From Dehalococcoidia bacterium (GTDB lineage: Bacteria > Chloroflexota > Dehalococcoidia > GIF9 > AB-539-J10): DNA of 13,578 nt. The stretch spans positions 1 through 13,578 of the forward strand of contig JAUWOR010000016.1 in NCBI GenBank assembly GCA_030612025.1. Direction: 5' to 3'. Made by a program: the position numbers and the translations under genes. The notes beneath the pieces were generated by a model, which saw only the letters and a list, made by a program, of their open reading frames with translations, was not told where the DNA came from and did no database searches. Of the stretch, positions 82-13,563 are shown one piece after another; position 1 is the stretch's first letter; each line of letters starts with the position of its first letter.

Positions 82-118
82 GAAAGAGACTCGTACTTGA
101 TTTAACGTGGAAGAAAAA

Positions 119-172
119 CTAGTATTTGAATTTCAATCCATAATCAACCAGTTCCCTCTTAGCTTTTTCATA
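119..172 (-). pseudogene. 3'-terminal relic of a second mtmB-like gene
   Basis: Minus strand reads YEKAKRELVDYGLKFKY*, versus YEKAKKELADYGLNFKY* at the end of the 3277..4647 gene. 48/54 nt are identical to 3277..3330. An in-frame TAA lies immediately upstream (173-175). Confidence 0.85.
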
Positions 173-600
173 TTAAGATTTCAGAGTTTCGACAGCGCCA
201 TCTTGAATGCTCGACACCCACATGAGAATGAAAACGACGCTCACGGCGGTAATAAATCAGTCATTGTTTGTCCCAAGAAGTTAAGATTCTACCTGAGAAC
301 AAAATCTCTTTACCCTCCTGTCAGAGCACTCAAAAAGACTTATGTTTTCGTGCTAACCTTGCAGCTAGCCATAGGCCAGTTCATACCATCTTGAGCTGAC
401 TAATTCCTTGGTGTCTCCTTTTTTGTAGCTACCCGAATTCTTTCCCTCCTTGCATTCGCACTGAGCAAATTAGTATTTTTGAGTTAGAATTTCGTAGGTA
501 TCAGGCCTTTTGTCTTATGCTCGTTCACAGGATTAGTGACGCCTCACCTTCTTTTTTTTGATTTTGTTGGCTGATAGTGCCTCTTACCCTCACTAATGAA

Positions 601-1863
601 TTATGAGATAGCTACCTCCTTTAAAACTGTTTCGTGGAACTTCAGAGGCCAGCCTATATCGGCCATTATTTTCAGGAATTTCATCGGGTCAAGGCATTCA
701 GCGGGAATTACTCCTCTTTCTGCATTGCCTTCCGCACACATCTTTGCTCCTACAATTGCTGGTAAAGCAACGGCTATATTCCTTGCTCCAAATCTTTTAT
801 ATACCTCCAACCCCTCTTCAGCACTTGTAACAAGGGAATAAGGCCAGGATAGTGTATATGTGACATCTTCTCCCGATTTAGCTCCCTTTATCTCTATTAC
901 AATAGAGTTAAACCCGAACGGAAGCTTGCCAGTGCTTTCATCCTCAGTGAAAAAATCCTCAGCTGGATGAGGCACCAATTTCAGTAAAACGTCACGTGGC
1001 ACAACCTTCACACCCTTTACATTTATCGCTTCCGAGTTAGCAAACCCCATCTTAACAAAAGCGCCCGCCAGAAAGTCGACCGGGAATTTGAAAGCACAAT
1101 ACTTAACACCTTTACCTATGTAACGTGGCAGTGTTATCGCTTCTTGGTGTTGATGGTAAGAAATTAAAACTGGACCAACTGGGTCTGGGAAATTATACTC
1201 TTCGCAACTACTAAAGCGAGGGTATTTCTTATACTTCCCATCTTCGAATACTGTAGGCTCAACTGCATAACCCCAAAGTGCTCTAAAAGGAGACCATCCC
1301 GGATCCCAGGCACTAACCACTTCCTCAGGCCTTTTTGGGACTTTTGCGCCAAACCTAATATGTATTTCATCCACACGGTCCAATTTATCACAACCATATC
1401 TAGCTAATACATTAGTGACTCCAGGAGATCCTCCGCAACCAACTAAGGCTGTCAAACCAGCCTTTTTGAACTCATTATCAAGTTCAAGTGGTCGGTTTTC
1501 TATTATCTGTGACAAGATATTATCTCTGGCAAGTATGTCTAACAAGCTAGGCTCGCCAAAAGATGTATCCACATAGTGAGCACCGCTTTTTAAGGCAGCT
1601 TTCATTATATTTGAGTTGAAAGCGGTCAATGTCAGATTAATAATGGCATCTACTCCCTTAGCTGCTCTCTCAATGTCCTCAACCTTTCCGGCGTCAACCT
1701 TTATAGTGGTAATTTTATCGCTTTTTATTTTGCTTTTAACCTTATTGGCTAAATCTAGATCTATATCACTTAAAACTATTTCTGCTATATCCTTGTCCCT
1801 AGCCAGAATTGAAGCACATGGACCACCTTGTCCCCCAGCTCCTACTATCAATACTTTCTTCAT
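601..1863 (-). CDS. Saccharopine dehydrogenase / carboxynorspermidine dehydrogenase-family NAD(P)-dependent C-N oxidoreductase
   Basis: N-terminal Rossmann motif VLIVGAGGQG with an acidic residue in LSDID. Family-type segments HYVDTS, GCGGSPGVTN and ERGVIPAE. RBS AAGGAGG upstream of ATG. Confidence 0.85.
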   Translation of the reverse strand: MKKVLIVGAGGQGGPCASILARDKDIAEIVLSDIDLDLANKVKSKIKSDKITTIKVDAGKVEDIERAAKGVDAIINLTLTAFNSNIMKAALKSGAHYVDTSFGEPSLLDILARDNILSQIIENRPLELDNEFKKAGLTALVGCGGSPGVTNVLARYGCDKLDRVDEIHIRFGAKVPKRPEEVVSAWDPGWSPFRALWGYAVEPTVFEDGKYKKYPRFSSCEEYNFPDPVGPVLISYHQHQEAITLPRYIGKGVKYCAFKFPVDFLAGAFVKMGFANSEAINVKGVKVVPRDVLLKLVPHPAEDFFTEDESTGKLPFGFNSIVIEIKGAKSGEDVTYTLSWPYSLVTSAEEGLEVYKRFGARNIAVALPAIVGAKMCAEGNAERGVIPAECLDPMKFLKIMADIGWPLKFHETVLKEVAIS

Positions 1864-1921
1864 TTATTCCTCCTTTTCCATTTAAATTTGAAATCTATTT
1901 ATAGTATGGTTCTCTCTATTT

Positions 1922-1959
1922 TGGACTGCACCCCTATGATTGGACAGAAAGGGTTAGGA
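1922..1959. repeat. IS right inverted repeat (IRR)
   Basis: TGGACTGCACCCCTATGATTGGACAGAAAGGGTTAGGA aligns with the reverse complement of 3184-3221 (TGGAGTGAACCCCTGAAGCTGGACACATTAGGTTAGGA). Confidence 0.9.
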
Positions 1960-2877
1960 GAGTTTGACGGGATTCCTCCTTTCTATTCTCTTTCATAGCC
2001 AGTAATGCCTCGAACTCATCAGGTGGCCGATAACCCAGTGCCGAATGAAGTCTCTTATGATTATAGACTTCCTGGATGAAACAGGGAAGCCTGGTCATCA
2101 CATCCTCCAGCGTCTCATATTCGCATAGGTATACCTCCTCATGCTTCAATGTTTTGAAAAAGCTCTCTATCCTGGCATTCTCATAAGGATTGCCTTTCTG
2201 AGCCATGCTGATCTCAAATCCGTAGCTCTTAAGTTCGTCTACGTACTCACTTGAGGCGTATTGCACTCCCTGGTCCGAGTGATGAATTATGCCAGGGCCA
2301 GGGTTACGCTCTGCTATAGCCATCTTAAATGCCTCAATTGTTAGTGAGCTATCAATCTTGGTGGAGAGGGCATAGCCTATCACCCGCCGGGAGCAAGCAT
2401 CCAATATCGCTGCCAGGTAGACAAAGCCAGTCTTGATACGGATGTAGGTAATATCACTAATCCATACCTGGTTTAACCTATTGATAACCATTCCCTTGAT
2501 GAGATTGGGATACTTGGGGAAGTGATGGTTACTATTGGTGGTTCTTACCCACTTCCGTTTGACCTGACATAAGAGGTCGCTTTCCCTCATCAAGCGCAGC
2601 ACCTTCTTATGATTTGCCCTCCATCCCTCACGCTTAAGCTGATGAGTAATCCTGCGGTAGCCATAACGGGGAAACTCAAGACAGATGGCCTCATGCGATC
2701 TACCAGGTCTGCCTCCAGCTGCATCCTGTCAGAGCTCTTGGCACCGGGTTTGCGATAGAAGCTACTCCGGGGGATGCTCATAAGTCTACACCCTTGCCGG
2801 ATACTGCTGAGGAAGTCTTTGCACCTGGTGACAAATTCCCGTTTCTCTGAGGCTGGCTGAAGCTCATCTGTAACCCC
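1934..2877 (-). pseudogene. IS3-family transposase OrfB (DDE integrase core), interrupted by an apparent 1-nt deletion at 2692/2693
   Basis: The DDE motifs WISDITY, HHSDQGVQY and NARIESFFKTLKHE are intact. The N-terminal part (SIRQGCRLMSIPRSSFY...LVDR) and the downstream part (EAICLEFPRYGYRRITHQLKREGWRANHKKVLRLMRE) are in different frames, and one added base after CGC-AT restores DRIEAIC. The ORF track splits this into 2590..2781 and 1934..2602. Confidence 0.85.
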
Positions 2878-3131
2878 TTTTTTAGAAACTCATTCTCCAG
2901 TGTCAGCCTGCCCACCAGCCGCTCCAACTTATCTACCCTGTCCCTAAGGGCAGCTTCCTCGGTGGGTTCATTATTGAACTTACCCCGACTGTATTGTTTC
3001 TTCCAATGGTAAAGTAGGCTCGGCGAGATGTTGTATCTCCGGCAGAGTTGGGCAGGACGGCTCTCTCCACTGAGTAACTCCTCTACTACCTGCCTCTTAA
3101 ATTCTATACTGAAACTTCTCTGATTCCTCAT
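2778..3131 (-). CDS. IS3-family transposase OrfA (HTH DNA-binding protein, 117 aa)
   Basis: RSFSIEFKRQVVEELL...QLCRRYNISPSLLYHWKKQY HTH followed by a coiled coil (LERLVGRLTLENEFLKK). ATG at 3131 has an AAAGGA RBS and is preferred over the track start at 3179. Confidence 0.9.
   Translation of the reverse strand: MRNQRSFSIEFKRQVVEELLSGESRPAQLCRRYNISPSLLYHWKKQYSRGKFNNEPTEEAALRDRVDKLERLVGRLTLENEFLKKGLQMSFSQPQRNGNLSPGAKTSSAVSGKGVDL
2877..2883 (-). other. A-AAA-AAG programmed -1 ribosomal frameshift site fusing OrfA to OrfB
   Basis: CTA AAA AAG lies in the orfA frame. The -1 frame is open from here (KGVTDELQPASEKREFVTRCKDFLSSIRQGCRLMSIPRSSFY) into orfB. This is the canonical IS3-family slippery heptamer. 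Confidence 0.8.
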
Positions 3132-3183
3132 GGCAAGATCCTTTCTATCCTCCATTATAGAGTATTTTGGCCCTGCCAAACCT

Positions 3184-3221
3184 TCCTAACCTAATGTGTC
3201 CAGCTTCAGGGGTTCACTCCA
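3184..3221. repeat. IS left inverted repeat (IRL)
   Basis: Reverse complement matches 1922-1959 at 27/38 positions. It ends in CA, followed by the TSD ATTT. Confidence 0.9.
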
Positions 3222-3276
3222 ATTTATTCCCACATAGGCAATAACCTTCCCATATAAATTCTCTCATGGAAGAAAG

Positions 3277-4647
3277 CTAATATTTGAAATTCAACCCATA
3301 ATCAGCCAGTTCCTTCTTAGCCTTTTCATATAAGGCTACATACTCTTTACTGGGCTGCAAAGTCTTTATGTTATAGCAGTCCTGGTATCTCTTGCCCTCA
3401 GGAGGGTTATCAAGATTACCTTCGTACTTCGATAAAAGTTTGTTTACTATTTCATTTGCCTTAGTCCTTTTCATTCCAACCGCCGCATGAGCAACTTCCG
3501 CGGTCCATTTGGATATCATGGGACTAAGGTGATCTATGAGGGCATTTTTAGCACCACCAGGAGCCTCGATAGAACTACCGGAAACTACAGATGCGATTAC
3601 ACGAGCAGCGTTTTCATAAAACTCCATCTCAGTCTCAGGGCCCGCAGCTATGTTAGAAATATTAATTAACGGGAAGTGGCTATTCCTAGCGATTGCTTGA
3701 GTACCCAAGCTCATGGCTGCCAAACATGTCCTCGGTGATTCACAAGAATACATGACATGTGGTGTGCCATTATCCTGGCACGAGCCACGGAACACGAGTA
3801 TTGCCTGAATATGGTCAGCTACAACAGTTAGCGCAGTTCCTTCCGGGCCACCACAATACCCGCCCAGGATGGGAGTAGTTTCAGCTACAACATGTCCACC
3901 AAAACTAGTAACAAAGGCAATTTCATTGAGTCTTTCAAAATTAACTTTCAGCTCAGACATCGAGCCAATAAGCCAACCATCCGAAGGCCTGAGCCCAAAT
4001 TGGCTGCCAGCAATCTTTCCTTGGTCTGATACTGCTGTGGCTATGGAATTCATTACAGGTAACCCAGGCCTTCCTGCTTTTCTGAGTCCCTCTCTTAATA
4101 GAACAACACTTTTAATACAAGCTAATATTTCTAGGGGTGAACCGGCACGCACAGGGACACCATCCAATGTAGCTAATGATGGTGCAGTGAGTGAATCTGC
4201 AAAAGGAACTTCACCGTAGCCTTGCACAACGCTTTCAAATATCTCCTCGTTAGAAACTGCAGCTCCGCAAGCTCCAAGAAAACACCAGGGAGGAATATTA
4301 CTCTCTGGCTTACGTGCTACCAATGCTTTTGCTTCTTTGCCTTCACCAAATATCGGAGCTGAAGGTGCTGTTGCTAATGCTTCCCGAATCTCTGCCTCCG
4401 TAAACTGGATAATACGTTGCGTATCAACACAATATGTGCCCACATTAGCATAAAGCTCTATTCCTGCTTTAAACACCCTGTCAGCTAAATCATCATCAGA
4501 AGGTATAACGTTTTCGGGATCGTATTTGATTTCATATTTTTTAACTACTTCCCTTAATTTTGGGACAAACACCTTCAAATTGTAATCCTTCTCAGAATAA
4601 TAAGGTCCTGTCAATGCCCGATTAATAACGTCCATAAAGCTAACCAT
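3277..4647 (-). CDS. mtmB: Monomethylamine:corrinoid methyltransferase (MtmB) family protein lacking pyrrolysine
   Basis: Recognisable MtmB segments: DRVFKAG, GTYCVDTQRII.FTE.EI, AGRPG, ELK, PILGGYCGG, AGPETEM, GKRYQDCY..KT. Length is 456 aa with no in-frame TAG; the Pyl-equivalent position is Met199 (ATG at 4051-4053). Confidence 0.9.
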   Translation of the reverse strand: MVSFMDVINRALTGPYYSEKDYNLKVFVPKLREVVKKYEIKYDPENVIPSDDDLADRVFKAGIELYANVGTYCVDTQRIIQFTEAEIREALATAPSAPIFGEGKEAKALVARKPESNIPPWCFLGACGAAVSNEEIFESVVQGYGEVPFADSLTAPSLATLDGVPVRAGSPLEILACIKSVVLLREGLRKAGRPGLPVMNSIATAVSDQGKIAGSQFGLRPSDGWLIGSMSELKVNFERLNEIAFVTSFGGHVVAETTPILGGYCGGPEGTALTVVADHIQAILVFRGSCQDNGTPHVMYSCESPRTCLAAMSLGTQAIARNSHFPLINISNIAAGPETEMEFYENAARVIASVVSGSSIEAPGGAKNALIDHLSPMISKWTAEVAHAAVGMKRTKANEIVNKLLSKYEGNLDNPPEGKRYQDCYNIKTLQPSKEYVALYEKAKKELADYGLNFKY

Positions 4648-5320
4648 TACTTCTCTCCTTCATGCTCCTTTTTTTGGACATAAGTTCTAAAGCAACAGAA
4701 ACCGCGTCTTTAGCTGTCTTCCCATATCCATCAGCTCCAATCTTATCTGCCCAACTTTGGGTTACAGGCCCTCCTCCTACCATAACAATATACTCATCTC
4801 TAATCCCTGCTGCTTTTAATATATCTATAAGATCTTTTTGTCCTAACATAGTTGTAGTTAAAAGAGATGATACACCTATAATATCTGCTTTAACCTTCTC
4901 TGCTTCCTGCAAAAAAGTAGAAATCGGCACATCTTTGCCTATATTGTGCACCTCAAACCCCGCTGTTTTTAAGAGCATTGCCACAATATCTTTACCTATC
5001 TCATGAATATCTCCCTTCGCCGTACCTATCACTACAGTGCCTTTCTTCTCTATACTTTTGCCTCTGGCTAAAATTTCAGGCCCTAGTATCTCCACCGCTG
5101 CATTAAAAACATCCCCAGCCATTATGAGTTCAGGTAGGTAAATCTCTAATTTCTCAAACCGATCTCCTATTTCATTCATTCCCCTGAACAAGCCCTTTTC
5201 AATACCCTCCAATGGATCAAGTTTTTCCTTAACTAGTTTATTTGCAGCTTCTCTTCCTTTATCCTCATCCAGGTCTACAATGGCTCTGAATAGGTCTTCA
5301 AATATTTCCTCTCTTCCCAA
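4640..5320 (-). CDS. Methyltransferase cognate corrinoid (B12-binding) protein, MtmC/MttC-like
   Basis: Cap domain (IGDRFEKLEIYLPELIMA), DxHxxG motif (GDIHEIGK), SSLLTTT and VGGGP. TTG start with AAAGGAGG RBS. Overlaps the mtmB-like start by 8 nt. Confidence 0.95.
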   Translation of the reverse strand: MGREEIFEDLFRAIVDLDEDKGREAANKLVKEKLDPLEGIEKGLFRGMNEIGDRFEKLEIYLPELIMAGDVFNAAVEILGPEILARGKSIEKKGTVVIGTAKGDIHEIGKDIVAMLLKTAGFEVHNIGKDVPISTFLQEAEKVKADIIGVSSLLTTTMLGQKDLIDILKAAGIRDEYIVMVGGGPVTQSWADKIGADGYGKTAKDAVSVALELMSKKRSMKERSNG

Positions 5321-5582
5321 TAAATCCTCCTTTAATATCTTTCCTGAGAACTTAACCCCCTTATATCCTTAGGCAAGTCTGTTCTAAGCTATTTCAGCCT
5401 AACTCCTATCTCCCTGTACAAAGAACCAGCTAACTGTTGTTTTAATGGAGCCAGAGTTAGCAAACTTACAAAACCATGCTCTCTCGAATATCACGAATAT
5501 TAGCCTTGAGCAACCCTATTACTACTTTCCTTTTTTATCCCCTTCTACCAGTACAGCGGCAAGAATGCTGGTTGCCATCTTT

Positions 5583-5719
5583 TCCAATACCATAAGTATC
5601 AAAGAACTTAATAACACTTGAAACACCTTCCACATAAGCTTCCCCTTCGATGATCTTAACCTATATTAACTTTTGCTGTGCTATCTGACACTTGCTTTAT
5701 GCAAACAACAATTCCCCAT
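5583..5719 (-). pseudogene. etfB: Degenerate electron transfer flavoprotein beta-subunit (etfB) 5' relic
   Basis: ATG at 5719, then after a frameshift IVVCIKQVSDSTAKVNIG* (5712-5656), then after a second shift EAYVEGVSSVIKFFDTYGIG (5642-5583). These match the EtfB consensus MkIvVCiKQVPD...EGVps.iNPfD.yA. Not in the ORF track. Confidence 0.75.
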
Positions 5720-5778
5720 AGCTCCTTTCCTGGTCAATATGCCTAGCTTTTCCAGTCAAAAATCCTAGTTTATCCTTC

Positions 5779-7056
5779 TTACCAAGATTCAAAAGTGTAC
5801 TCTCCACGTGCCGCATCTAACACAGCGCCATGGACACCACCCATCCAAATACGAATGATTGGTAGACTTCGAAGGTATTTTTCTACATGACCACCGGTTG
5901 AATAACCATAAGACCCCATCAAGCCCATAGCTTGTCTGCAAACCCACTCAGCTACCTCGGTTCCGAAGTTCTTACAAGCAGACGATCTTGCTATTTGTTG
6001 AAGTGAGGTCGGGTCTCCATATATCTCAGGGTGATCAAACATATAAGCAACATTCAAGTAGTAACTCCTAGCGGCTTGAATTTTCATAGCCATTTCACCA
6101 ATTGTAGCAGCAAAAAGCGACCTATCTCTCACTGGTTTCCCCACAATATATCTATCCTTTAAGTAGTCTGTTGCGATTTCAAGACAGGCTTGAGCTGGAC
6201 CTAACGCCTCAGCAGCACTTTGAAAGCGTGTGGATACCATCCACTTAAGAACCCAGGCCCCTTGCCCTCCTGGTGCCCCGCTACAATATTCTTTGGGGAC
6301 TCTCACATCATCATAGTAAATGGCCCCATTTTTTGCTGTGCATACTCTACCCAGCAATTCCTCGGGTTTACTAAATGATAATCCTGGTGTATCTTTGGGA
6401 ACGTCGATAATGACTATCCCATCATCTCCCTTTTCGGGGTCCGTAGTGCAAACTGTGCTATAGATTTCGGAGCTAATGATAGGACCAGGCCATAGCTTTT
6501 GTCCATTTATTATCCACTCGTTGCCTTTGAGTTCAGCTCTCGTTTGAATGGTGCGTCCATGCTGGCAATAAACATCTTCAATATTACAACCGCCGGCAGG
6601 TTCCGTCATGGCAAAACAACCATCACAAACCTCGCCACCACAGAACAGAGAAGCAAACTTCTTCAATATTGTCTCGTTATTGACAAGCATAGCTGCTAGA
6701 ACGCCCCATACACCCGTAGCAAAATGTTCACCTATATCTGGATCTCCTCGGGCAAGTTCCTCTATGAAAATACAATAAGTTACATTAGAGGTGATCCCCA
6801 ACCCCCCATATTCCTTTGGGAACCAGGCCCTTTGCCATCCCATGTCCACGAGCTTCTTCCTAATTTCATGAAAGGTCTTTTCGGCCAATTCTCGATCGCG
6901 GTGAAAGCCACCATCTAAATCCAGGCGACGAGGCATGACCTCTCGGTCTACGAATTCATGCAACGTTTTTGCTATTACTATATCTTCCTCGGTAGCAAAT
7001 GCTTTACTGTACTTCTGAGCAGGATCTCTCAAGTCTACACTAGATGGATATTCCAT
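5779..7056 (-). CDS. Acyl-CoA dehydrogenase-fold flavoprotein with atypical active-site motifs
   Basis: FPKEYGGLG, EELARGD, CFAMTEPAGG, WIINGQKLW, YDDVRVP, MGSYGYS. RBS AAGGAGGT. Confidence 0.9.
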   Translation of the reverse strand: MEYPSSVDLRDPAQKYSKAFATEEDIVIAKTLHEFVDREVMPRRLDLDGGFHRDRELAEKTFHEIRKKLVDMGWQRAWFPKEYGGLGITSNVTYCIFIEELARGDPDIGEHFATGVWGVLAAMLVNNETILKKFASLFCGGEVCDGCFAMTEPAGGCNIEDVYCQHGRTIQTRAELKGNEWIINGQKLWPGPIISSEIYSTVCTTDPEKGDDGIVIIDVPKDTPGLSFSKPEELLGRVCTAKNGAIYYDDVRVPKEYCSGAPGGQGAWVLKWMVSTRFQSAAEALGPAQACLEIATDYLKDRYIVGKPVRDRSLFAATIGEMAMKIQAARSYYLNVAYMFDHPEIYGDPTSLQQIARSSACKNFGTEVAEWVCRQAMGLMGSYGYSTGGHVEKYLRSLPIIRIWMGGVHGAVLDAARGEYTFESW

Positions 7057-7211
7057 TTAACAACCTCCTTATCTTTATTTTTTGCAGCGAATTTCTCATC
7101 CTCCGCCCCAATGCTCTCCGCAATACCTGTTAGTTTTTGCGCCAGGAGATCATTACCAGGGTAGTAAAGTGGAAACCTACCCTCATTAAGCTCCTCAGAC
7201 AAGTAGCCAAA

Positions 7212-8450
7212 TCACCAACCTTCGTACTCTTTTTTCAGAATCTCGAGGAATACATCATAAGTTAGCACCCTTGGATTTGAGTCTAGACTTAAATTCCATG
7301 TAGCTCTTTCTGCTATTTTTGGTAAATCCTTTTCATCCACACCTAGTTCTTTTAAACTATGCGGTGCCTCAACCATGTTGATCATTTCTTTCACAGTATC
7401 TACAGATTTCAGCGCTGCAGCCTTCAGAGATAGGCCAGAGACATCCTCACCTAGAAGTTCAGCAATTCTAGCGAATTTGGCTGGGTTAGTCATGCAGTTA
7501 TATTCCATAATCCAAGGTGCAGCTAGTGCACAAGTGACCCCGTGCGGTATCACTGGACGCGGTGGATTTCCATAGACACCACCTAATGCTTCCCCTAAGC
7601 AATGCATACCAGCACAGTTAGTGCTTGAGAAAGCTACACCTCCTAAGCAAGATGCCATCATCATCCCTTCCCTGGCATCAATATCTTTGCCATTCGTATA
7701 CGCTATTGGTAAATTCTCTGCCACTAACCTAATGCCATACTCTGCCAACGCATCACAAACAGGATTTGACACATTAGCAGTATAAGCTTCAATGAGATGA
7801 CTTAAAGCATCCAAACCAGTGGACGCCGTCTGCTTCGGAGGTAAACTAATTGTGAGTTCTGGGTCATCTATGGCAACTTTTGCTGCGATACATGGCCCAC
7901 CTAGATAGGTCGCAGGACCACCTATCGCCATTTTTTCCCATTTTTCAGTATGTGTTACAACAGCCCAGGGGTTACATTCGCTCCCCGTGCCTGACGTTGT
8001 TGGAATAGTTATCAATGGAAGCGGATGAGCCTTAGCTTTAGACCCTGCAGGTCCGCACACAGTATACGAATAGTCTTGTATCGTCCCTTGGTTCGTGGCT
8101 AGTAACGCTATGCACTTGGACGTATCCATAGGGCTGCCACCACCTAATCCAATAATTACATCTGGTTTAATTTCTCTGGCAAGTTTAGTTCCTGCCTCGA
8201 CGATGGTGTCAAGCGGATTCGCTTCTACCCTATCAAACATATCATAGCCTATTCCCGCCTCTTCGAGAAGCGTAGTAACTTTTCTGGCAATTCCTGCCTC
8301 GCTAAGTCCCTGGTCAGTTACAAGTAAGGCTTTCTTATACCCCGAATCTTTGACGATCCTGCCAAGTTGTGCAACTTTACCCCGCCCAAAAACAAGCGAT
8401 GCTTGCCAATAAAATTCAAAAGACTTTAATGTTCTTTGCATTACTGTCAT
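7212..8450 (-). CDS. Iron-containing (type III) alcohol dehydrogenase, 412 aa
   Basis: GLGGGSPMD, PTTSGTGSE, and metal ligands in DALSH...HCLGE...PHG. Start moved from 8483 to ATG 8450, which follows AAAGGAGG. Confidence 0.93.
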   Translation of the reverse strand: MTVMQRTLKSFEFYWQASLVFGRGKVAQLGRIVKDSGYKKALLVTDQGLSEAGIARKVTTLLEEAGIGYDMFDRVEANPLDTIVEAGTKLAREIKPDVIIGLGGGSPMDTSKCIALLATNQGTIQDYSYTVCGPAGSKAKAHPLPLITIPTTSGTGSECNPWAVVTHTEKWEKMAIGGPATYLGGPCIAAKVAIDDPELTISLPPKQTASTGLDALSHLIEAYTANVSNPVCDALAEYGIRLVAENLPIAYTNGKDIDAREGMMMASCLGGVAFSSTNCAGMHCLGEALGGVYGNPPRPVIPHGVTCALAAPWIMEYNCMTNPAKFARIAELLGEDVSGLSLKAAALKSVDTVKEMINMVEAPHSLKELGVDEKDLPKIAERATWNLSLDSNPRVLTYDVFLEILKKEYEGW

Positions 8451-8531
8451 TTCTATTCCTCCTTTCTTTTTCAACTTCTTCATCTAAATTCACTTTTAAT
8501 CTTCTTTATTCTCTTTTATGGCTAGGAGCAC

Positions 8532-9251
8532 CTATGCCCCTAAATAAGCTTTCCTTACGCGTTCGTTATTTAACAATGCTGCACCACTATCACTCATGAC
8601 TATATTGCCTGTTTCTATGACATAACCTTTATCGGCAAGCTTAAGCGCCATGTGAGCATTTTGCTCTACCAAAACGACGGTGATTTCCATAATGGTTTTG
8701 ATAGTTTCAATTATTCTGGCAATTTCAGCGACCACCAAGGGAGCTAAACCTAGTGAAGGTTCGTCCATTAGCAGCAAGCGTGGCTTTGTCATAAGCGCCC
8801 GCGCGATTGCGAGCATCTGTCCTTCGCCGCCGCTTAAGGTTTTTGCAAGTTGATTTTGTCTCTCCTTCAGTATCGGAAAATGCCGAAACATATCTTCAAT
8901 ATCTGCCTCTACTTCAGCTCTGTTCTTTCGTAAGAAGGCACCCATGGCGAGGTTTTCTTTCACGGTCATCAGCCTGAACAGCCTCCTTCCTTCGGGGGTA
9001 AGTCCAATTCCCAAGGCAACGATGTCATGGGTTGCCGTTCTATCTATCCTCTTGCCATCAAACCAGATCTCGCCGGACGTTGCCCGTTTCACCCCAGACA
9101 CGGTCTTCAAAAAAGTGGTTTTTCCTGCACCGTTGGCCCCAATAAGAGCAACAATCGTTCCTTTTTCAGCGTATAAGGAGACGTTTCTAAGTGCTGAAAC
9201 TTTATCATAGTATACACTTAAGCCCTTGACATCGAGAAACATGCTATTCAC
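8532..9251 (-). CDS. livF: Branched-chain amino acid (HAAT) ABC transporter ATP-binding protein, LivF-like
   Basis: Walker A GANGAGKT, PEGRRLF, LSGGE, LLMDEPSLGLAP, LVEQN, C-terminal VRKAYLG. Confidence 0.92.
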   Translation of the reverse strand: MNSMFLDVKGLSVYYDKVSALRNVSLYAEKGTIVALIGANGAGKTTFLKTVSGVKRATSGEIWFDGKRIDRTATHDIVALGIGLTPEGRRLFRLMTVKENLAMGAFLRKNRAEVEADIEDMFRHFPILKERQNQLAKTLSGGEGQMLAIARALMTKPRLLLMDEPSLGLAPLVVAEIARIIETIKTIMEITVVLVEQNAHMALKLADKGYVIETGNIVMSDSGAALLNNERVRKAYLGA

Positions 9252-10005
9252 CTCCTCCCAAGTAAGCTTCGATTACAGCCTTGTCTTTACTCACTTCTGC
9301 GGGCGTACTCTCGGCAATCCTTTTCCCAAAGTTTAGAACAGTGATCTTATCGCACAGGTTCATAACAAACTTCATATTATGTTCAATCAGCAGTATAGAC
9401 ACTCCGCTATCCCGTATCTTACCAAGCAAGCTCGTCAACTCCATGCTTTCTTCTGCGTTCATGCCCGTGGCCGGTTCATCTAACATTAATAGTTTTGGTT
9501 TGACAGCCAAGGCGATAGCTATTCCAAGCTTCCTCTGATAACCATGCGGCAGGCTCGCAGCACGCTCACCTAAATATTGAGACAGGCCCAGAAACTCAAT
9601 AATTTCTATGGCCTCTCTTCTATTACTCTCTTCGCTCCCCAGTGTAGCTCGGGTACTAAGCATCTGTCCCCAGAAGCTCTCATGTGCGTGCAGGTGGCAT
9701 CCCACCAGCACGTTTTTTAGGACGTCAAACTCCCTAAACAGGACATTGGCTTGAAAGGTTCGAACGAGCCCCAATGCAGCTACTTTATCAGGTGTCAAGC
9801 CAACAATGTTCTTCCTTTCGAAGAAGATGTCCCCTGCTTCTGGAAGGTAAACACCGCTTAGCACATTAAAGAGAGTTGTCTTGCCAGCGCCGTTGGGTCC
9901 GATCAAACCCCTTATCTCTCCTTCATTAACAGTCATATCTACGTTACTAAGGGCTTCTAAACCACCGAAGTACTTACTTACCTTCCTGATTTCAAGCAAA
10001 GCCAT
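9244..10005 (-). CDS. livG: HAAT ABC transporter ATP-binding protein, LivG-like
   Basis: FGGLEAL, GPNGAGKTT, RTFQ, LPHGYQR, LDEPATGMN, IEHNM, VIEAYLG. Overlaps both neighbours. Confidence 0.92.
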   Translation of the reverse strand: MALLEIRKVSKYFGGLEALSNVDMTVNEGEIRGLIGPNGAGKTTLFNVLSGVYLPEAGDIFFERKNIVGLTPDKVAALGLVRTFQANVLFREFDVLKNVLVGCHLHAHESFWGQMLSTRATLGSEESNRREAIEIIEFLGLSQYLGERAASLPHGYQRKLGIAIALAVKPKLLMLDEPATGMNAEESMELTSLLGKIRDSGVSILLIEHNMKFVMNLCDKITVLNFGKRIAESTPAEVSKDKAVIEAYLGGGE

Positions 10006-10969
10006 CTTTTCCTAATCCCCCTTTCCTGCTTCGGGATCTTCTAATCTGTGAGCGGATCCTCTCGGGTATACTTATCAGGCCTCCAGGCAAAAACAGGACT
10101 ATCAATATCAGGATAATGCCAAAGGTTATCAGGCGGTAGAATCCCAGCGGACGAAATAGCTCATCTAACAAAGTCAAGGCAATAGCACCTACTATCGGCC
10201 CGCCAATAGCAGACAACCCTCCCACTATATTATGAACCAGACTGAATTCTGATTGCCAAATGTCGAAACTACGTGGACTTATATAGGTATGATAATGAGC
10301 ATAAAGAGCACCAGTCAAACCGGCCCAGAAGCAAGCTATAGAAAAGGTCAGAACTTTATATTTCAGGGGATTAATGCCGACATGTTGGGCTAGAGTCTCA
10401 GCTTCATGAATGCTCCATAGGTTCATGCCTACCCGAGAGCGGTTCAGCTTCCAGATGAAAACTACACAGGCCACAGTAAGTGCAACCGCTACATAGTAGT
10501 AAGCAATCCTTGATGAGAGAACCTTAGGGGGCAGGATATAGAACAGCCCATCCCAACCCCCGAAGGTTCCCCTGAAGTAAGCAAAGGTCATTTTTATGAT
10601 CTCACCAAGTGCCCAACTAGCCATGAAGAAGTAGACTGCTCTTGTCCTCATCAAGGGAATGCTCACTAGAGCCCCAATAATCCCTGCCATTAACGCCCCT
10701 AACCATATGGTAACCCCAAACGGCCAACCCAGTTTCAAGAACAGCAGGGCAGATGTATAGGCGCCGATACCCATAAAACCAGCATGAGCAAAAGAAACTA
10801 ACCCCAGAGTTGTTATAAGCCACATGCTAGTAGCCATCATCACGTTAAAAGCGATGGTTATGGCGATATGCAGAATATACTCCTCCTGGGTAATAGCAGG
10901 CCACAAAAACACCAGGATTATTAAAATCACCCCGATATGGGACTTAAGCCACTCCTTATTCATTTGCAC
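9992..10969 (-). CDS. livM: HAAT ABC transporter permease, LivM-like
   Basis: Multiple hydrophobic helices; GLVSFAHAGFMGIGAY, SRVG..L..I.E.E.LA..VGIN, GLTGALYAH, VGG, LPGGL. Start is GTG 10969 or ATG 10963. Confidence 0.9.
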   Translation of the reverse strand: MQMNKEWLKSHIGVILIILVFLWPAITQEEYILHIAITIAFNVMMATSMWLITTLGLVSFAHAGFMGIGAYTSALLFLKLGWPFGVTIWLGALMAGIIGALVSIPLMRTRAVYFFMASWALGEIIKMTFAYFRGTFGGWDGLFYILPPKVLSSRIAYYYVAVALTVACVVFIWKLNRSRVGMNLWSIHEAETLAQHVGINPLKYKVLTFSIACFWAGLTGALYAHYHTYISPRSFDIWQSEFSLVHNIVGGLSAIGGPIVGAIALTLLDELFRPLGFYRLITFGIILILIVLFLPGGLISIPERIRSQIRRSRSRKGGLGKDGFA

Positions 10970-10996
10970 CTTTCATTGCTACTCCCCTCTCCTCCA

Positions 10997-11887
10997 TTAG
11001 AGCTCCCATGCCAACCCAAACAACCCTAAGGGTTTGAATACCAGTATTATAAAAACCGTAATGAAACCCACTATGTACCCAAGTTCGGAGCTAAATAGAG
11101 TGCCAACGAAACTGTCGATCATCCCTATGATAAATGCGCCAACAATGGCACCGGGAATACTTCCTAGTCCTCCCACAATCACTATCATGAAGGCCTTCAC
11201 AGTAGCGTCAAATCCCATTGTGGGAACGATAGACGTCAACGTTCCCACCAAGCATCCAGCAACTGCTGCCAGAGCACTGCCTAGACCGAAACCCAGCATA
11301 TGGACCCGTTGCGTATTTATTCCTTGCAGAGAACTGGTCTCAGGGTCTTCAGCAACGGCACGCATTGCCCTTCCCATCTTGAACCTGTGCAGGAAAAAAT
11401 GCAGCCCCCATAGTGCAAGCCCAGCTATGGCACAAATTGTCATCCTTTCATAGCTGAGGACCCCACCCAATATCTCTACTTTACCCGTAACGACGCCTGG
11501 TATGCCTTTTTCTACTGTGCCAAAAAAGCGGAGGCCAGCACTGGATATGATAAAGATTAACGCTAAGGTCATAGCCAAGTAATCTAATATCGGTCTGTCC
11601 CGCAAGGGACGCAGAAGAACAAACTGCATTCCCATGCCTATGGCAAAAATAATGCCGCAACTTAGTGGGAGTGCTATCCAATAAGGCAATTCTGCCCTAG
11701 TACATAGATAGTAGAGACCATAAGCACCAAGCATATATAATTCACCATGAGCATACTGAACAACACGCAGAATACCAAAGATCAAGCTCAAGCCGATTGC
11801 CATCAGAGCGTATATCAAACCCAGTGATGCCCCATTTATGAACATCTGTATCCCGAGCTCTCTTAACATACCAACAACTGATTCCAT
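10997..11887 (-). CDS. livH: HAAT ABC transporter permease, LivH-like
   Basis: GLIYALMAIGLSLIFG, AHGELYMLGAY, GRAMRAVAED, GIN, VGGLGSIPGA, KPLGLFG. Confidence 0.93.
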   Translation of the reverse strand: MESVVGMLRELGIQMFINGASLGLIYALMAIGLSLIFGILRVVQYAHGELYMLGAYGLYYLCTRAELPYWIALPLSCGIIFAIGMGMQFVLLRPLRDRPILDYLAMTLALIFIISSAGLRFFGTVEKGIPGVVTGKVEILGGVLSYERMTICAIAGLALWGLHFFLHRFKMGRAMRAVAEDPETSSLQGINTQRVHMLGFGLGSALAAVAGCLVGTLTSIVPTMGFDATVKAFMIVIVGGLGSIPGAIVGAFIIGMIDSFVGTLFSSELGYIVGFITVFIILVFKPLGLFGLAWEL

Positions 11888-11934
11888 TCTTTGAACTTCC
11901 TATTCCTCCAAGACTCCACTGCGTTTTTGTGTGC

Positions 11935-13176
11935 TTAATACTCCGGTGGTAGCTCAGGAAAACCTTTTTCGAGAAGCCGCGCTACTCCATCCTCAATGAT
12001 GTAAGTATAGTTATCATAGACAACTTGTCGCGGCAGGCCATATCGTGCCTTTCCAGCAAAAATCACCTCCCCCATATAACAATCTTCCTCCCCCATCTCT
12101 ACCTTTTCTAGAGCATTCGCGACAGCGCGAGTGTCCGTAACCGTGCCGCTAGCCTCAAAAGCCTTTTTCAATGCATATGCCCACCAAGTGTACCCGCCAG
12201 ATAACTCATAGAAGTGGCCGTACTTGCGCTCAAGCTTCTCACGCATCCGCTTTTGAAAGTCTGTGAGCTCTATGCCTTCAATGTTTGTATAGTAGGGGTA
12301 GCCAGAGACGATAACATCGTCAGCGAATTCCCCGCATATCTCCAGTATAGTCGTTACCTCCCCGGCGGCCGTTGAGACAATTGGTCCCTCGTAGCCCATC
12401 TCTCGGGCTGCTTTCACGATAGAGGCAGTTGTCCCTGCTGGAAGCGGGCTGCAGATGATAAAATCAGGATTTGCTGCTAGTGCTCTTGTCACTATGGGAT
12501 AGAAATCAGTAACAGTCCACTCAAAATAAAGGTACCCAAGGTCTTCGATACCATAGTGATCCATTAGCAGTGTGTACGAATAATGGCAATCATAGCCATC
12601 CTTGTCATCCGGGCCAATGAAAAAACACGATTCTAACTTGTCTCGGCCATAGTACCTAAACATGGCGGGTATGTACTGAAAGCCCGACTCATAGTCGGTC
12701 ATTTCGAGCCTAAATCCGTAGAAATACTCAGGGCCGATAAGCTCTATGTAACCCCAGCAGGCTGCCATTGACAGTACCTCGTTGGGCTCACTGATCCCCA
12801 GCATGCCTATGGTGGTGGCTGCAGGCGTGGCAAACATGTACTTTACCTTATCCTCGAAAACCAGCCGGGTTGTAGCTGCTCTGGAATCAGCCACGACGTT
12901 TTTGCTATCATAAGTAATAACTTCCATCTTGTACGTCTCATCCCCGACTTTGATTCCGCCTGCAGCATTAATTTCTTCGGCTGCGGTCTCCCAACCTTCC
13001 ATTAAACATATACCCCAATAAGCGCACTCGCCTGATAATGGTACCGTTCCTCCGATTTTAACCGTCTTCATTGGCTTTTCTTCTTCCACTGGAGGAGCAG
13101 GCGCACACATGGGAAGAGCAAAAGCCATTAATAAAGAAACCACTAATCCCACACTAATTAACCATTTCCATCTCAT
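11935..13176 (-). CDS. HAAT (LivJ/LivK-like) ABC substrate-binding protein, probable lipoprotein, 413 aa
   Basis: Signal peptide MRWKWLISVGLVVSLLMAFALPM-C followed by a Pro-rich linker APAPP; KIGGTVPLSG..A.WG, EINAAGGI.VG, DFYP. ATG 13176 follows AAAGGAGG. The track start at 13371 is probably over-extended; an in-frame ATG at 13236 is an alternative. Confidence 0.9.
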   Translation of the reverse strand: MRWKWLISVGLVVSLLMAFALPMCAPAPPVEEEKPMKTVKIGGTVPLSGECAYWGICLMEGWETAAEEINAAGGIKVGDETYKMEVITYDSKNVVADSRAATTRLVFEDKVKYMFATPAATTIGMLGISEPNEVLSMAACWGYIELIGPEYFYGFRLEMTDYESGFQYIPAMFRYYGRDKLESCFFIGPDDKDGYDCHYSYTLLMDHYGIEDLGYLYFEWTVTDFYPIVTRALAANPDFIICSPLPAGTTASIVKAAREMGYEGPIVSTAAGEVTTILEICGEFADDVIVSGYPYYTNIEGIELTDFQKRMREKLERKYGHFYELSGGYTWWAYALKKAFEASGTVTDTRAVANALEKVEMGEEDCYMGEVIFAGKARYGLPRQVVYDNYTYIIEDGVARLLEKGFPELPPEY

Positions 13177-13239
13177 GATATTTTTTCCTCCTTTCTTAAT
13201 AATTTTCTCAGTCTTTCCTGAGAGCCAATTCTTCATAGG

Positions 13240-13347
13240 TATCACCTCCCTACTGAGCAACCAGAATCCCCGATTGCAGCGGCACAGCATACGGGACAAG
13301 GGAGGTAATATGCCAACCTTGTCAGCGCCGTTCCCCGCTGGTTGCCC
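13240..13347 (-). ncRNA. Candidate structured cis-regulatory leader RNA with an anti-SD/SD pseudoknot
   Basis: Nested helices 13347-13338/13264-13255 (10 bp), 13330-13325/13285-13280 (6 bp) and 13314-13308/13292-13286 (7 bp). TATTACCTCCCT (13310-13299) pairs with AGGGAGGTGATA (13251-13240). No known family recognised. Confidence 0.45.
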
Positions 13348-13371
13348 GATATACATAACTCTTTCCTTCAT

Positions 13372-13460
13372 TTTTAAGCTCCCTACAAAGACATAGGCCC
13401 GCCCTTGATTAGAACGAGCCTATGCAGCGTGAAAGTAAGATAAAAAAGGGAGACTTAAAA
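13372..13460 (-). other. Second nested stem-loop domain in the leader, possible attenuator
   Basis: Outer stem 13460-13447/13384-13372 (13 bp, one bulge). Inner stem 13424-13415/13401-13392 (10 bp, one G-U), followed by UCUUUGU. Confidence 0.35.
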
Positions 13461-13520
13461 CATAGATATTAATCAACTTCATTTAACTAGTATCCCCCTA
13501 AGAGCTTGCTACCTTTATTT

Positions 13521-13549
13521 ATGTTAAAGCACGGGGGGGCGGTTGTCAA
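13521..13549 (-). promoter_or_regulatory. Sigma70-type promoter for the cluster
   Basis: Perfect -35 TTGACA (13549-13544), 17-nt spacer, -10 TAACAT (13526-13521). Predicted TSS is near 13514. Confidence 0.7.
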
Positions 13550-13563
13550 TAGCTCGAATTGAC
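13545..13563. promoter_or_regulatory. Inverted repeat GTCAAT-N7-ATTGAC overlapping the -35 (operator and/or back-to-back divergent -35 boxes)
   Basis: Exact 6-bp arms at 13545-13550 and 13558-13563. The right arm also gives TTGACT on the + strand. Confidence 0.4.

Follow-up and report, generated by a model that had tools for sequence, protein, structure and literature searches.

We analyzed a window of 13,578 bp, the entire contig C10 of an uncultured Dehalococcoidia bacterium from seep sediment (genome of 1.40 Mb in 19 contigs, 95.6% complete), which encodes a pyrrolysine (Pyl)-free methyltransferase of the MtmB family. Comparison with related loci firmly supports a conserved unit composed of an importer, a corrinoid protein, MtmB and an oxidoreductase of the saccharopine dehydrogenase (SDH) fold, with an acyl-CoA dehydrogenase (ACAD)-fold flavoprotein as a frequent associate. 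Based on these sequence comparisons, we propose that an N-methylated amine is imported, that MtmB and the corrinoid protein would demethylate it and that the SDH-like enzyme would then cleave a C-N bond of the product. We give this scheme a probability of about 45%.

Methylated amines are major osmolytes as well as carbon and nitrogen sources in marine sediments. Pyl-free MtmB homologs occur widely among the uncultured bacteria and archaea of sediments, with one member, MtqB, of known substrate, and the locus described here adds an SDH/ACAD variant of the Pyl-free MtmB module to a family that is almost unstudied. According to the accessible part of the report on MtqB (Kashyap et al. 2026, PMC13044021), this Pyl-free MtmB homolog of Methanococcoides methylutens Q3c demethylates tetramethylammonium and choline and is called by its authors the first function for the Pyl-free MtmB group. 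The statement of the first-pass annotation that no substrate had been defined for a Pyl-free MtmB is therefore outdated. MtqB/MtqC resembles the window in that a gene of the Pyl-free MtmB family stands beside its own corrinoid gene, a placement made by family (PMC13044021). In contrast to the window, MtqB belongs to a methanogen, in which the methyl group reaches coenzyme M through an MtbA-type (URO-D) enzyme, whereas the window genome has no URO-D matches; the SDH-like and Glu-less ACAD partners are not described for MtqB in the accessible part of that report. In the accessible literature, with supplements not covered, we found no description of this gene combination, of a Dehalococcoidia MtmB or of an N-methylproline corrinoid methyltransferase.

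A further system for comparison is MtgB/MtgC/MtgA, the glycine betaine:tetrahydrofolate (THF) system of Desulfitobacterium hafniense, with MtpB, MtcB and MtyB as its relatives. MtgB is cited in the accessible parts of PMC13080624 and PMC13044021. Like the system proposed for the window, MtgBCA represents bacterial Pyl-free corrinoid N-demethylation feeding the THF/Wood-Ljungdahl pathway. However, its first methyltransferase (MT1) belongs to the MttB family (PF06253), which is unrelated to the MtmB of the window and has no match in the window genome, and neither a dedicated MtgA nor RamA was found in that genome.

The Pyl-free MtmB gene and its recurring partners

The MtmB of the window matched PF05369 over profile positions 2-450 of 450 with 343.3 bits (cut-off 25), contained no internal stop and aligned end to end with the MtmB of Methanosarcina barkeri (1L2Q; 219.6 bits, residues 6-454 against 11-458). 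Pyl202 of 1L2Q aligned to Met199, with a one-residue insertion after Met199. In the host genome, aragorn identified a tmRNA and 47 tRNAs and no tRNA(CUA). In fold and family the window is like MtmB1/MtmC of M. barkeri (1L2Q, 1NTH), whereas it has Met199 for Pyl202, no amber codon and no tRNA-Pyl in its genome. Of the features that characterize a pyrrolysine-dependent MtmB, the cognate corrinoid gene alongside is present and the in-frame UAG is absent. The Pyl-free status that the first-pass annotation had assigned to this enzyme is thus confirmed by the Met at the Pyl position, the uninterrupted frame and the missing tRNA(CUA). Among 189 homolog matches from two locus sets, the residue at the Pyl site was M in 100, V in 44, L in 19, F in 12, Q in 9, H in 3, A in 1 and I in 1, and a stop in none.

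The corrinoid protein scored 221.8 bits on TIGR02370 (above the cut-off of 215.3) and 218 bits on the MtgC model, and its DxHxxG motif is present as GDIHEIG. MtmB is the sole PF05369 gene of the host genome, and the MtmB, corrinoid, ACAD and SDH-like genes are each single-copy there, located only on C10. A homolog search with MtmB resulted in 1285 matches, the best 120 of which (55-93% identity) belonged to Chloroflexota, Spirochaetota, Desulfobacterota, Bathyarchaeia and others. A search with a distant MtmB (L224) resulted in a Desulfobacterales-rich clade and no methanogen-named protein.

The neighbourhood survey covered 156 loci, namely 77 genome loci, which were compared by clustering of open reading frames (ORFs) and Pfam and for which the counts leave out the window, and 79 metagenome loci. 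A corrinoid protein gene (Corr) was adjacent to MtmB in 55 of the 77 genome loci, which supports the two as a tight pair. Other genes found near MtmB in the genome loci were class-III aminotransferases (16/77, and three more with a longer form), MttB-family genes (12/77), SBP_bac_5 (10/77), and DHDPS-family and aldehyde:ferredoxin oxidoreductase genes (8/77 each). Taken over all loci, the genes around MtmB thus encode enzymes of amine processing. SDH-like genes were observed near MtmB in five genome loci (L015, L016, L037, L038, L045), or six when L003 is included, where the start of the SDH gene is seen, and in 9 of the 79 metagenome loci. The lineages in which the SDH fold recurs beside Corr-MtmB are Dehalococcoidia, Bathyarchaeia and a deltaproteobacterium. 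In an MtmB tree built from 93 sequences, the window was sister to L003 (SH-aLRT 98), and the SDH-linked MtmBs stood at four or more separate places.

The loci closest to the window derive from metagenome-assembled genomes (MAGs) of Dehalococcoidia. Fifteen loci carry an MtmB that is at least 75% identical to that of the window (L002, L003, L006, L020, L036, L158-L166, L212); the set is not independent, with L003/L006 and L020/L036 each stemming from one MAG and L158/L159 and L161/L162 being near-duplicates. The SDH-like gene was present in six of these 15 loci and the ACAD ortholog in four. For example, L158/L159 (MtmB 93%, Corr 83%, SDH 76%) have the order small protein-sodium:solute symporter (SSF)-Corr-MtmB-SDH, with nothing else in that direction. 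Similarly, the relative G024 shows small protein-SSF-Corr-MtmB(86%)-FeADH-SDH, where FeADH is an iron-containing alcohol dehydrogenase (Fe-ADH). The ACAD ortholog (85-87%) directly follows MtmB in L006 and L020 as well as in L166 (MtmB 79%; SDH-Corr-MtmB-ACAD, ACAD 86%) and in L160 (MtmB 87%; PotABCD-like importer-Corr-MtmB-ACAD, ACAD 87%), the latter followed by a convergent SDH-like gene. A 2,4-diaminopentanoate-dehydrogenase-like amine dehydrogenase was found in five of the 15 loci (L002, L036, L161, L162, L164), followed by a class-III aminotransferase in four, while the L164 contig ends at the dehydrogenase. L165 (MtmB 78%) has the order MttB-SDH-Corr-MtmB, then a Pyl-type mtbB. This dimethylamine methyltransferase gene (4353-5750; Dimeth_Pyl positions 2-353 and 357-462) contains an in-frame TAG at 5397-5399 and stands directly after the Pyl-free MtmB, and this close relative seems to group Pyl-type and Pyl-free methyltransferases with a single corrinoid protein.

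In the relatives, the gene at the head of the unit is always that of a transporter (SSF, PotABCD-like, TRAP or HAAT), which supports the import part of the scheme. Regarding the partners that the first-pass annotation had named for MtmB, the survey upheld the SDH-fold enzyme, in several lineages, and the atypical ACAD, but not the Fe-ADH and the Liv-type importer. A Fe-ADH was located beside MtmB in one relative only, with 33% identity to that of the window; Liv-type ATPases of at least 50% identity occurred near MtmB at three distinct loci (L007, which is the contig of L176, L199 and L212); and an ortholog of the binding protein was found in none of the 156 loci. The natural variants (importer swapped; ACAD, Fe-ADH, MttB or Pyl-type MtbB added) form a comparative series for finding the substrate.

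Mosaic history of the operon

The leader of the window aligned with that of L158 at 324 of 366 bases (88.5%; window 13185-13550 against L158 401-775), and the similarity, which takes in both the TTGACA box and the -10 position, stops just past the common ribosome-binding site. At the other side of the importer block, the symporter remnant was 82% identical over 56 nt to positions 2678-2733 of L158/L159, the end of the SSF gene (blastn, E 2e-8), and lies about 95 nt from the corrinoid gene start, a distance as in L158/L159. Since the leader is shared and a symporter remnant survives, a 7.8-kb HAAT-FeADH-ACAD block has evidently replaced the small protein and the symporter. The alignments show an ancestral operon of the order leader-small protein-symporter-Corr-MtmB-SDH, which underwent this block swap and then the insertion of an IS3 element in the spacer that separates mtmB from the SDH gene. 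In 2 of 400 other genomes of the class, the binding protein had homologs at E<=1e-40, and Fe-ADH matches at E<=1e-90 were found in none of these 400; because of this near-absence, the HAAT-FeADH part was probably acquired from outside. Within the sequencing-run data, which comprised contigs (Logan) of four runs, one of them RNA, both block junctions were spanned by single contigs in two runs, one of which is not flagged as a source of the window and belongs to the same study. Overall, the present operon can firmly be regarded as a recent mosaic, as judged from sequence comparison, and its nature is probably accessory and catabolic.

The gap between the ACAD and corrinoid genes measures 458 nt. 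As it holds the symporter-gene remnant, its interpretation as a regulatory element was rejected. The leader and this gap were also considered as sites of a riboswitch or another known RNA, which was likewise rejected, with no Rfam match at E<=1 across the whole window, both regions included.

The first-pass annotation had placed the cluster behind one sigma70-type promoter. The site TTGACA-17-TAACAT is indeed present, but it is one of 28 similar sites in the window compared to 22.5 +/- 4 in shuffles. The -35 hexamer and the -10 position are kept upstream of the related operon in L158/L159, and only because of this conservation does the promoter-like site gain weight. For the binding protein, a predicted start at 13176 (MRWKW..., signal-peptide-like) is more likely than one at 13371. 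A short upstream frame starting MKERVMYIGQPAGNG is present in both the window (13177-13371) and L158 (584-706); an indel in the window joins this frame to the binding-protein ORF, and the longest ORF therefore starts about 65 codons too early. Besides that, parts of the leader match short stretches elsewhere in related genomes.

The insertion sequence (IS) of 1300 bp shows the features of the IS3 family, namely orfA/orfB, TG..CA ends, 51-nt imperfect inverted repeats (1921-1971, 3172-3222) and a short target duplication (4 bp, AAAT, at 3222-3225 and 1918-1921), and NF033516 matched orfB with 228 bits. The transposase frame is not intact, as orfB needs a second frame change near 2690; contigs of two runs contain a one-base insertion at 2692. 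After subtraction of the IS and one duplicate, the spacer between mtmB and the SDH gene is exactly 109 nt, which agrees with the earlier estimate of about 109 bp, and the restored spacer aligns through the insertion point with the unbroken MtmB-SDH spacer of L158/L159, the empty site. The IS is single-copy in the host genome, and copies at 95% and 92% were found in the relative G006. Among the run contigs, none joined 1921 to 3222, as an IS-free allele would, and the empty site was seen only in the more distant L158/L159. In two DNA runs, contigs lead from the IS end at 3221 back to 1921 with a single intervening base, which indicates a circle or tandem junction of the IS family in the community. 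Three other joints (1857->13555, 1862->13206, 143->3317), with sides of less than 30 letters, were set aside as locus variants and taken as repeats or relatives. In the RNA-library run, the IS was present at a depth of 200-600 with about 98% identity, together with almost no other part of the window. Other runs that share only a small part of the window (0.07-0.10) probably contain mainly the IS as well, and they were left out of any reading of habitat.

A direct repeat (100-175 / 3267-3355) flanks the IS and the SDH gene, so that the mtmB 3' end recurs downstream of the SDH gene; this repeated end was probably left behind by a second Corr-MtmB module, since lost. The repeat at 1-89 has no second copy in the assembled host genome, while the run depth rises 5- to 10-fold there, and the assembly break at the contig end is likely due to this 89-nt repeat.

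Proposed route and competing explanations

The SDH-like protein matched both Sacchrp_dh domains above their cut-offs (80.2 and 49.4 bits) and scored 69.1 bits on the carboxynorspermidine synthase model NF043000, far below its cut-off of 800. It has the two-domain Sacchrp_dh fold and the N-terminal GxGxxG in common with carboxy(nor)spermidine dehydrogenase and saccharopine reductase, as represented by its PDB matches 4rl6, 4ina and 8deb. In contrast to carboxy(nor)spermidine dehydrogenase, its gene context is catabolic and its family is large and multi-copy, and the matches are weak (74-88 bits). In the sister genus, this family reaches 11-13 matches per genome (11 in G006 and 13 in G024, genomes of 1.4-1.5 Mb). 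Paralogs there adjoin MttB-family methyltransferases (L145, L149), and members in G006 and G024 (for example L145, L148, L149, L151) stand in tandem or beside MttB-family, M20/M29 peptidase and sarcosine-oxidase-like or opine-oxidase-like flavoprotein genes. Carboxy(nor)spermidine dehydrogenase and saccharopine reductase use NAD(P) to form or cleave the C-N bond of a secondary amine. In general, characterised enzymes of the SDH/carboxyspermidine dehydrogenase fold act on secondary amines, and we know of no characterised member of the saccharopine reductase/carboxy(nor)spermidine dehydrogenase fold that oxidises a primary amine.

The ACAD-fold flavoprotein retains the N-terminal, middle and C-terminal domains, and the YEG of 3pfd and 5ol2 aligned with WMG, which places Met405 (..IWMGG..) at the position of the catalytic Glu. 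This comparison was based on the YEG motif of the MCAD/SCAD/Bcd type, and the alternative position of the IVD type was checked by eye. The 85-87% orthologs also carry Met at the catalytic position. Homologs at 38-45% identity have Glu or Leu there, and their neighbours are 2-hydroxyacyl-CoA dehydratase, ETF and CoA-transferase genes; because either residue occurs, loss of the catalytic base is a recurring event in this subfamily. In Dehalococcoidia, such homologs (L113, L123, L127, L134 and others) adjoin genes for the 2-hydroxyacyl-CoA dehydratase D-component (HGD-D). An ordinary host acyl-CoA dehydrogenase was rejected as an explanation for the window protein, since it lacks the catalytic Glu.

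Among the NCBIfam models, choline dehydrogenase GbsB matched the Fe-ADH best (317.8 bits, cut-off 550), and the Fe-ADH was also nearest to the sulfoacetaldehyde reductase and lactaldehyde reductase models, all below their cut-offs; matches in the PDB were a methanol dehydrogenase (262 bits) and a 1,3-propanediol oxidoreductase (237 bits). The HAAT importer is present with all five components (binding protein, two permeases, two ATPases). Its binding protein scored 31.9 bits on the LivJ-type model NF011933 (cut-off 477), matched LivJ structures at E ~1e-3 and had 4gnr as best PDB match (E 5.7e-9), and is not of the Leu/Ile/Val type by this comparison.

In the proposed scheme, an N-methylated amine or amino acid would be imported, and its N-methyl group would be transferred by MtmB to the Co(I) corrinoid protein. 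From there, the methyl group would reach THF through a pterin-binding methyltransferase whose gene lies outside the window and for which an AcsE-like gene is the sole candidate. The SDH-like enzyme would then oxidise the C-N bond of the demethylated product to an aldehyde and an amine, the Fe-ADH may interconvert aldehyde and alcohol, and the Glu-less ACAD-fold flavoprotein would perform one further step. The substrate class, the order of steps, the methyl route and co-transcription are the parts of the scheme that we infer. The favoured product of demethylation would be a secondary amine, and the substrate then a tertiary amine with an N-methyl group, for which N-methylproline and N-methylated polyamines are examples; a substrate of this kind is favoured because SDH-fold enzymes act on secondary amines. 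For the same reason, the order put forward in the first-pass annotation, from a secondary to a primary amine with subsequent deamination, is less natural.

A THF/Wood-Ljungdahl sink for the methyl group exists in the host, as contig C5 carries a formate-THF ligase fragment, the AcsE-like methyltransferase and CdhD together. The pterin-binding genes of the host are FolP and this one AcsE-like gene beside the Wood-Ljungdahl genes, with no others found. It might even be, though we consider this rather doubtful, that the MtmB clade, its SDH-fold partner and the Glu-less ACAD constitute a pathway, so far undescribed, that degrades tertiary or secondary N-methyl amines without oxygen, with the methyl group delivered to the Wood-Ljungdahl pathway of sediment Dehalococcoidia. 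Here, a corrinoid enzyme would demethylate a non-quaternary nitrogen without pyrrolysine, and an NAD(P) enzyme would subsequently open the secondary amine. Candidate substrates would be N-methylproline left from proline-betaine demethylation and N-methylated polyamines of marine biomass. If the methyl donor is a non-quaternary amine, the view of Pyl-free enzymes as limited to quaternary amines must change. For anaerobic amine demethylation outside methanogens and a few acetogens, the locus narrows the search to a clonable unit of importer, Corr, MtmB and SDH-like gene.

Several observations weigh against the proposed scheme. The Fe-ADH and the HAAT importer are not conserved partners of MtmB, and since the importers of the relatives differ, their substrates may differ as well. 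Within the host's genus, MtmB was found in none of four genomes (68-86% complete), and within its family in 4 of 36, which makes the island dispensable. Recent shuffling is evident from the 458-nt gap and from the rearrangement scars, and the gene set therefore need not be one tuned pathway. The IS between mtmB and the SDH gene may cut the latter off from the operon, and the RNA run covers, besides the IS, only 322 nt of an ACAD relative with 91% identity, and nothing more of the cluster. Distant ACAD homologs occur in ordinary acyl-CoA contexts, yet a CoA-activating gene is absent from the window. Regarding the methyl transfer itself, the second methyltransferase (MT2) and the activator are missing from the window, as the first-pass annotation had reported; its proposal that the activator would act in trans was not supported, as RamA (PF14574) had no match in the whole 95.6%-complete host genome, whereas it is present in three of four MtmB-bearing relatives. 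URO-D (PF01208) and MtrH likewise had no matches in this genome, which leaves the corrinoid protein without a candidate activator. Finally, MtqB, the sole characterised Pyl-free MtmB, acts on quaternary amines, according to the accessible part of the report (PMC13044021).

The competing explanation that survives best, although unlikely, is that MtmB converts an N-monomethyl (secondary) amine to a primary amine, which the SDH-fold enzyme would deaminate to an aldehyde and ammonia. Primary-amine enzymes do follow MtmB elsewhere, as seen for the class-III aminotransferases and amine dehydrogenases described above, and the SDH-like gene holds the same post-MtmB position in L158/L159. It would, however, require an SDH-fold enzyme to oxidise a primary amine, for which we know of no characterised member. 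In addition, Pyl-free demethylation of an unquaternised secondary amine is without precedent in the accessible part of the literature considered here (PMC13044021).

Somewhat less probable is an MtqB-like system, acting on choline or a related quaternary amine, with the Fe-ADH as a GbsB-like dehydrogenase of choline or an amino alcohol. The substrates reported for MtqB in the accessible part of PMC13044021 fit this explanation, as do the rank of GbsB among the Fe-ADH models and the 218 bits of the corrinoid protein on the MtgC model. The GbsB score is, however, far below its cut-off, the Fe-ADH is not a conserved partner, and the conversion of a quaternary to a tertiary amine suits neither an SDH-type enzyme nor the aminotransferases of the sister loci.

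To about the same low degree, the window could contain no single pathway and represent a recombination hot spot of unrelated units (importer and Fe-ADH, ACAD, Corr-MtmB, SDH), with a methyltransferase that is perhaps inactive in the host. Three rearrangement scars and the IS are consistent with a hot spot, as are the lack of RamA and MttB in the host genome, the four congeners searched, in none of which the island was found, and the probably foreign block, with its binding-protein and Fe-ADH homologs near-absent from the 400 class genomes. Against unrelated units, all ten genes are intact, and the block is set exactly between the conserved leader and ribosome-binding site and the corrinoid gene, transporter for transporter. 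Moreover, relatives carry the ACAD and SDH partners again, arranged in several gene orders, and the MtmB of the window differs from that of L158 at about 10% of the bases and at no more than 7% of the residues.

More improbable still is a reversed sequence, in which the SDH-like enzyme acts first on an N-methyl secondary amine and releases methylamine along with an aldehyde or a keto acid, and the Pyl-free MtmB then demethylates the methylamine. Such a reaction is the natural chemistry of the SDH/opine-type fold, and in L165 the Pyl-type dimethylamine methyltransferase gene with its in-frame TAG immediately follows the Pyl-free MtmB, a position that suggests free methylamines for this relative. 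A small monomethylamine demethylation is also reported in the discussion of the MtqB paper, as far as accessible (PMC13044021). Yet pyrrolysine is regarded as a requirement for methylamine activation, a stop at the Pyl site occurs in none of the 189 homologs, and the residue at this site varies (M, V, L, F, Q), which speaks for substrates that differ and are larger. A methyl donor other than an amine (a halomethane, methyl thioether or methoxy compound) is very improbable: the host belongs to Dehalococcoidia, and a Pyl-free MtmB-superfamily protein of strain DCMF was the most induced on dichloromethane, but according to the accessible part of that report (PMC9768040) it is only about 30% identical to other MtmB-family proteins, and the neighbours here and in most other clades are amine or amino-acid enzymes and amino-acid-type importers.

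Features of the window and other MtmB contexts

All large ORFs of the window are on the minus strand, and ORF calling showed the ten cluster genes to be co-oriented and intact. Gene content (by ORFs, Pfam and NCBIfam) and shared orientation match the first-pass annotation, and so do the overlaps it had mentioned, which comprise three pairs of 8-14 nt each (LivM/LivG 14 nt, LivG/LivF 8 nt, Corr/MtmB 8 nt).

Table 1 Features of the window, with position, strand and basis of the assignment
Feature	Position	Strand	Basis or remark
Promoter-like site TTGACA-17-TAACAT	13521..13549	-	10/12 matches to promoter pattern
Leader, ~340 nt	13177..13520	-	common to the symporter-Corr-MtmB-SDH operon of L158/L159
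HAAT-family binding protein (Peripla_BP_6)	11935..13176, open frame to 13371	-	Pfam 138.5 bits
LivH-like permease	10997..11887	-	BPD_transp_2, 143.8 bits
LivM-like permease	9992..10969	-	BPD_transp_2, 112.7 bits
LivG-like ATPase	9244..10005	-	ABC_tran and BCA_ABC_TP_C
LivF-like ATPase	8532..9251	-	ABC_tran; NF008626 271.7 bits, below cut-off 441
Fe-ADH	7212..8483	-	Fe-ADH and ADH_Fe_C
ACAD-fold flavoprotein without canonical catalytic Glu	5779..7056	-	three ACAD domains (Pfam)
Symporter-gene 3' remnant (sodium:solute symporter)	5417..5471	-	blastn against L158/L159
Corrinoid protein, MtxC type	4640..5320	-	B12-binding and B12-binding_2; TIGR02370
Pyl-free MtmB-family methyltransferase	3277..4647	-	PF05369; Met199 at Pyl site
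IS3-family element	1922..3221	-	orfA 3179-2778, orfB 2602-1934
SDH-like NAD(P) oxidoreductase	601..1863	-	Sacchrp_dh_NADP and Sacchrp_dh_C; GAGGQG motif
MtmB-gene 3' fragment	100..175	-	blastn to MtmB 3' ends of 15 loci; self-alignment
Repeat element, contig end	1..89	no strand	79-94% matches, many sites in G006 and G024

Further contexts of MtmB were observed in the survey. In L212, the MtmB homolog (5417-6789, 79%) is split into two ORFs (5417-6139 and 6235-6789), for which a broken copy or a sequencing error is possible. L167 has a pterin-binding fragment near MtmB, and in Bathyarchaeia loci MtrH directly follows MtmB, with a convergent RamA beside it. Other MtmB clades each show a fixed gene context. 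Among Desulfobacterales (L021-L024), the order is PALP enzyme-M24 peptidase/creatinase-like-Corr-MtmB-D-glutamate-cyclase-like-SBP_bac_5. In Thorarchaeota and relatives (L050, L057-L063, L067, L072, L075), Opp-type ABC genes precede Corr-MtmB, followed by a convergent gene for a 380-aa protein without Pfam family.

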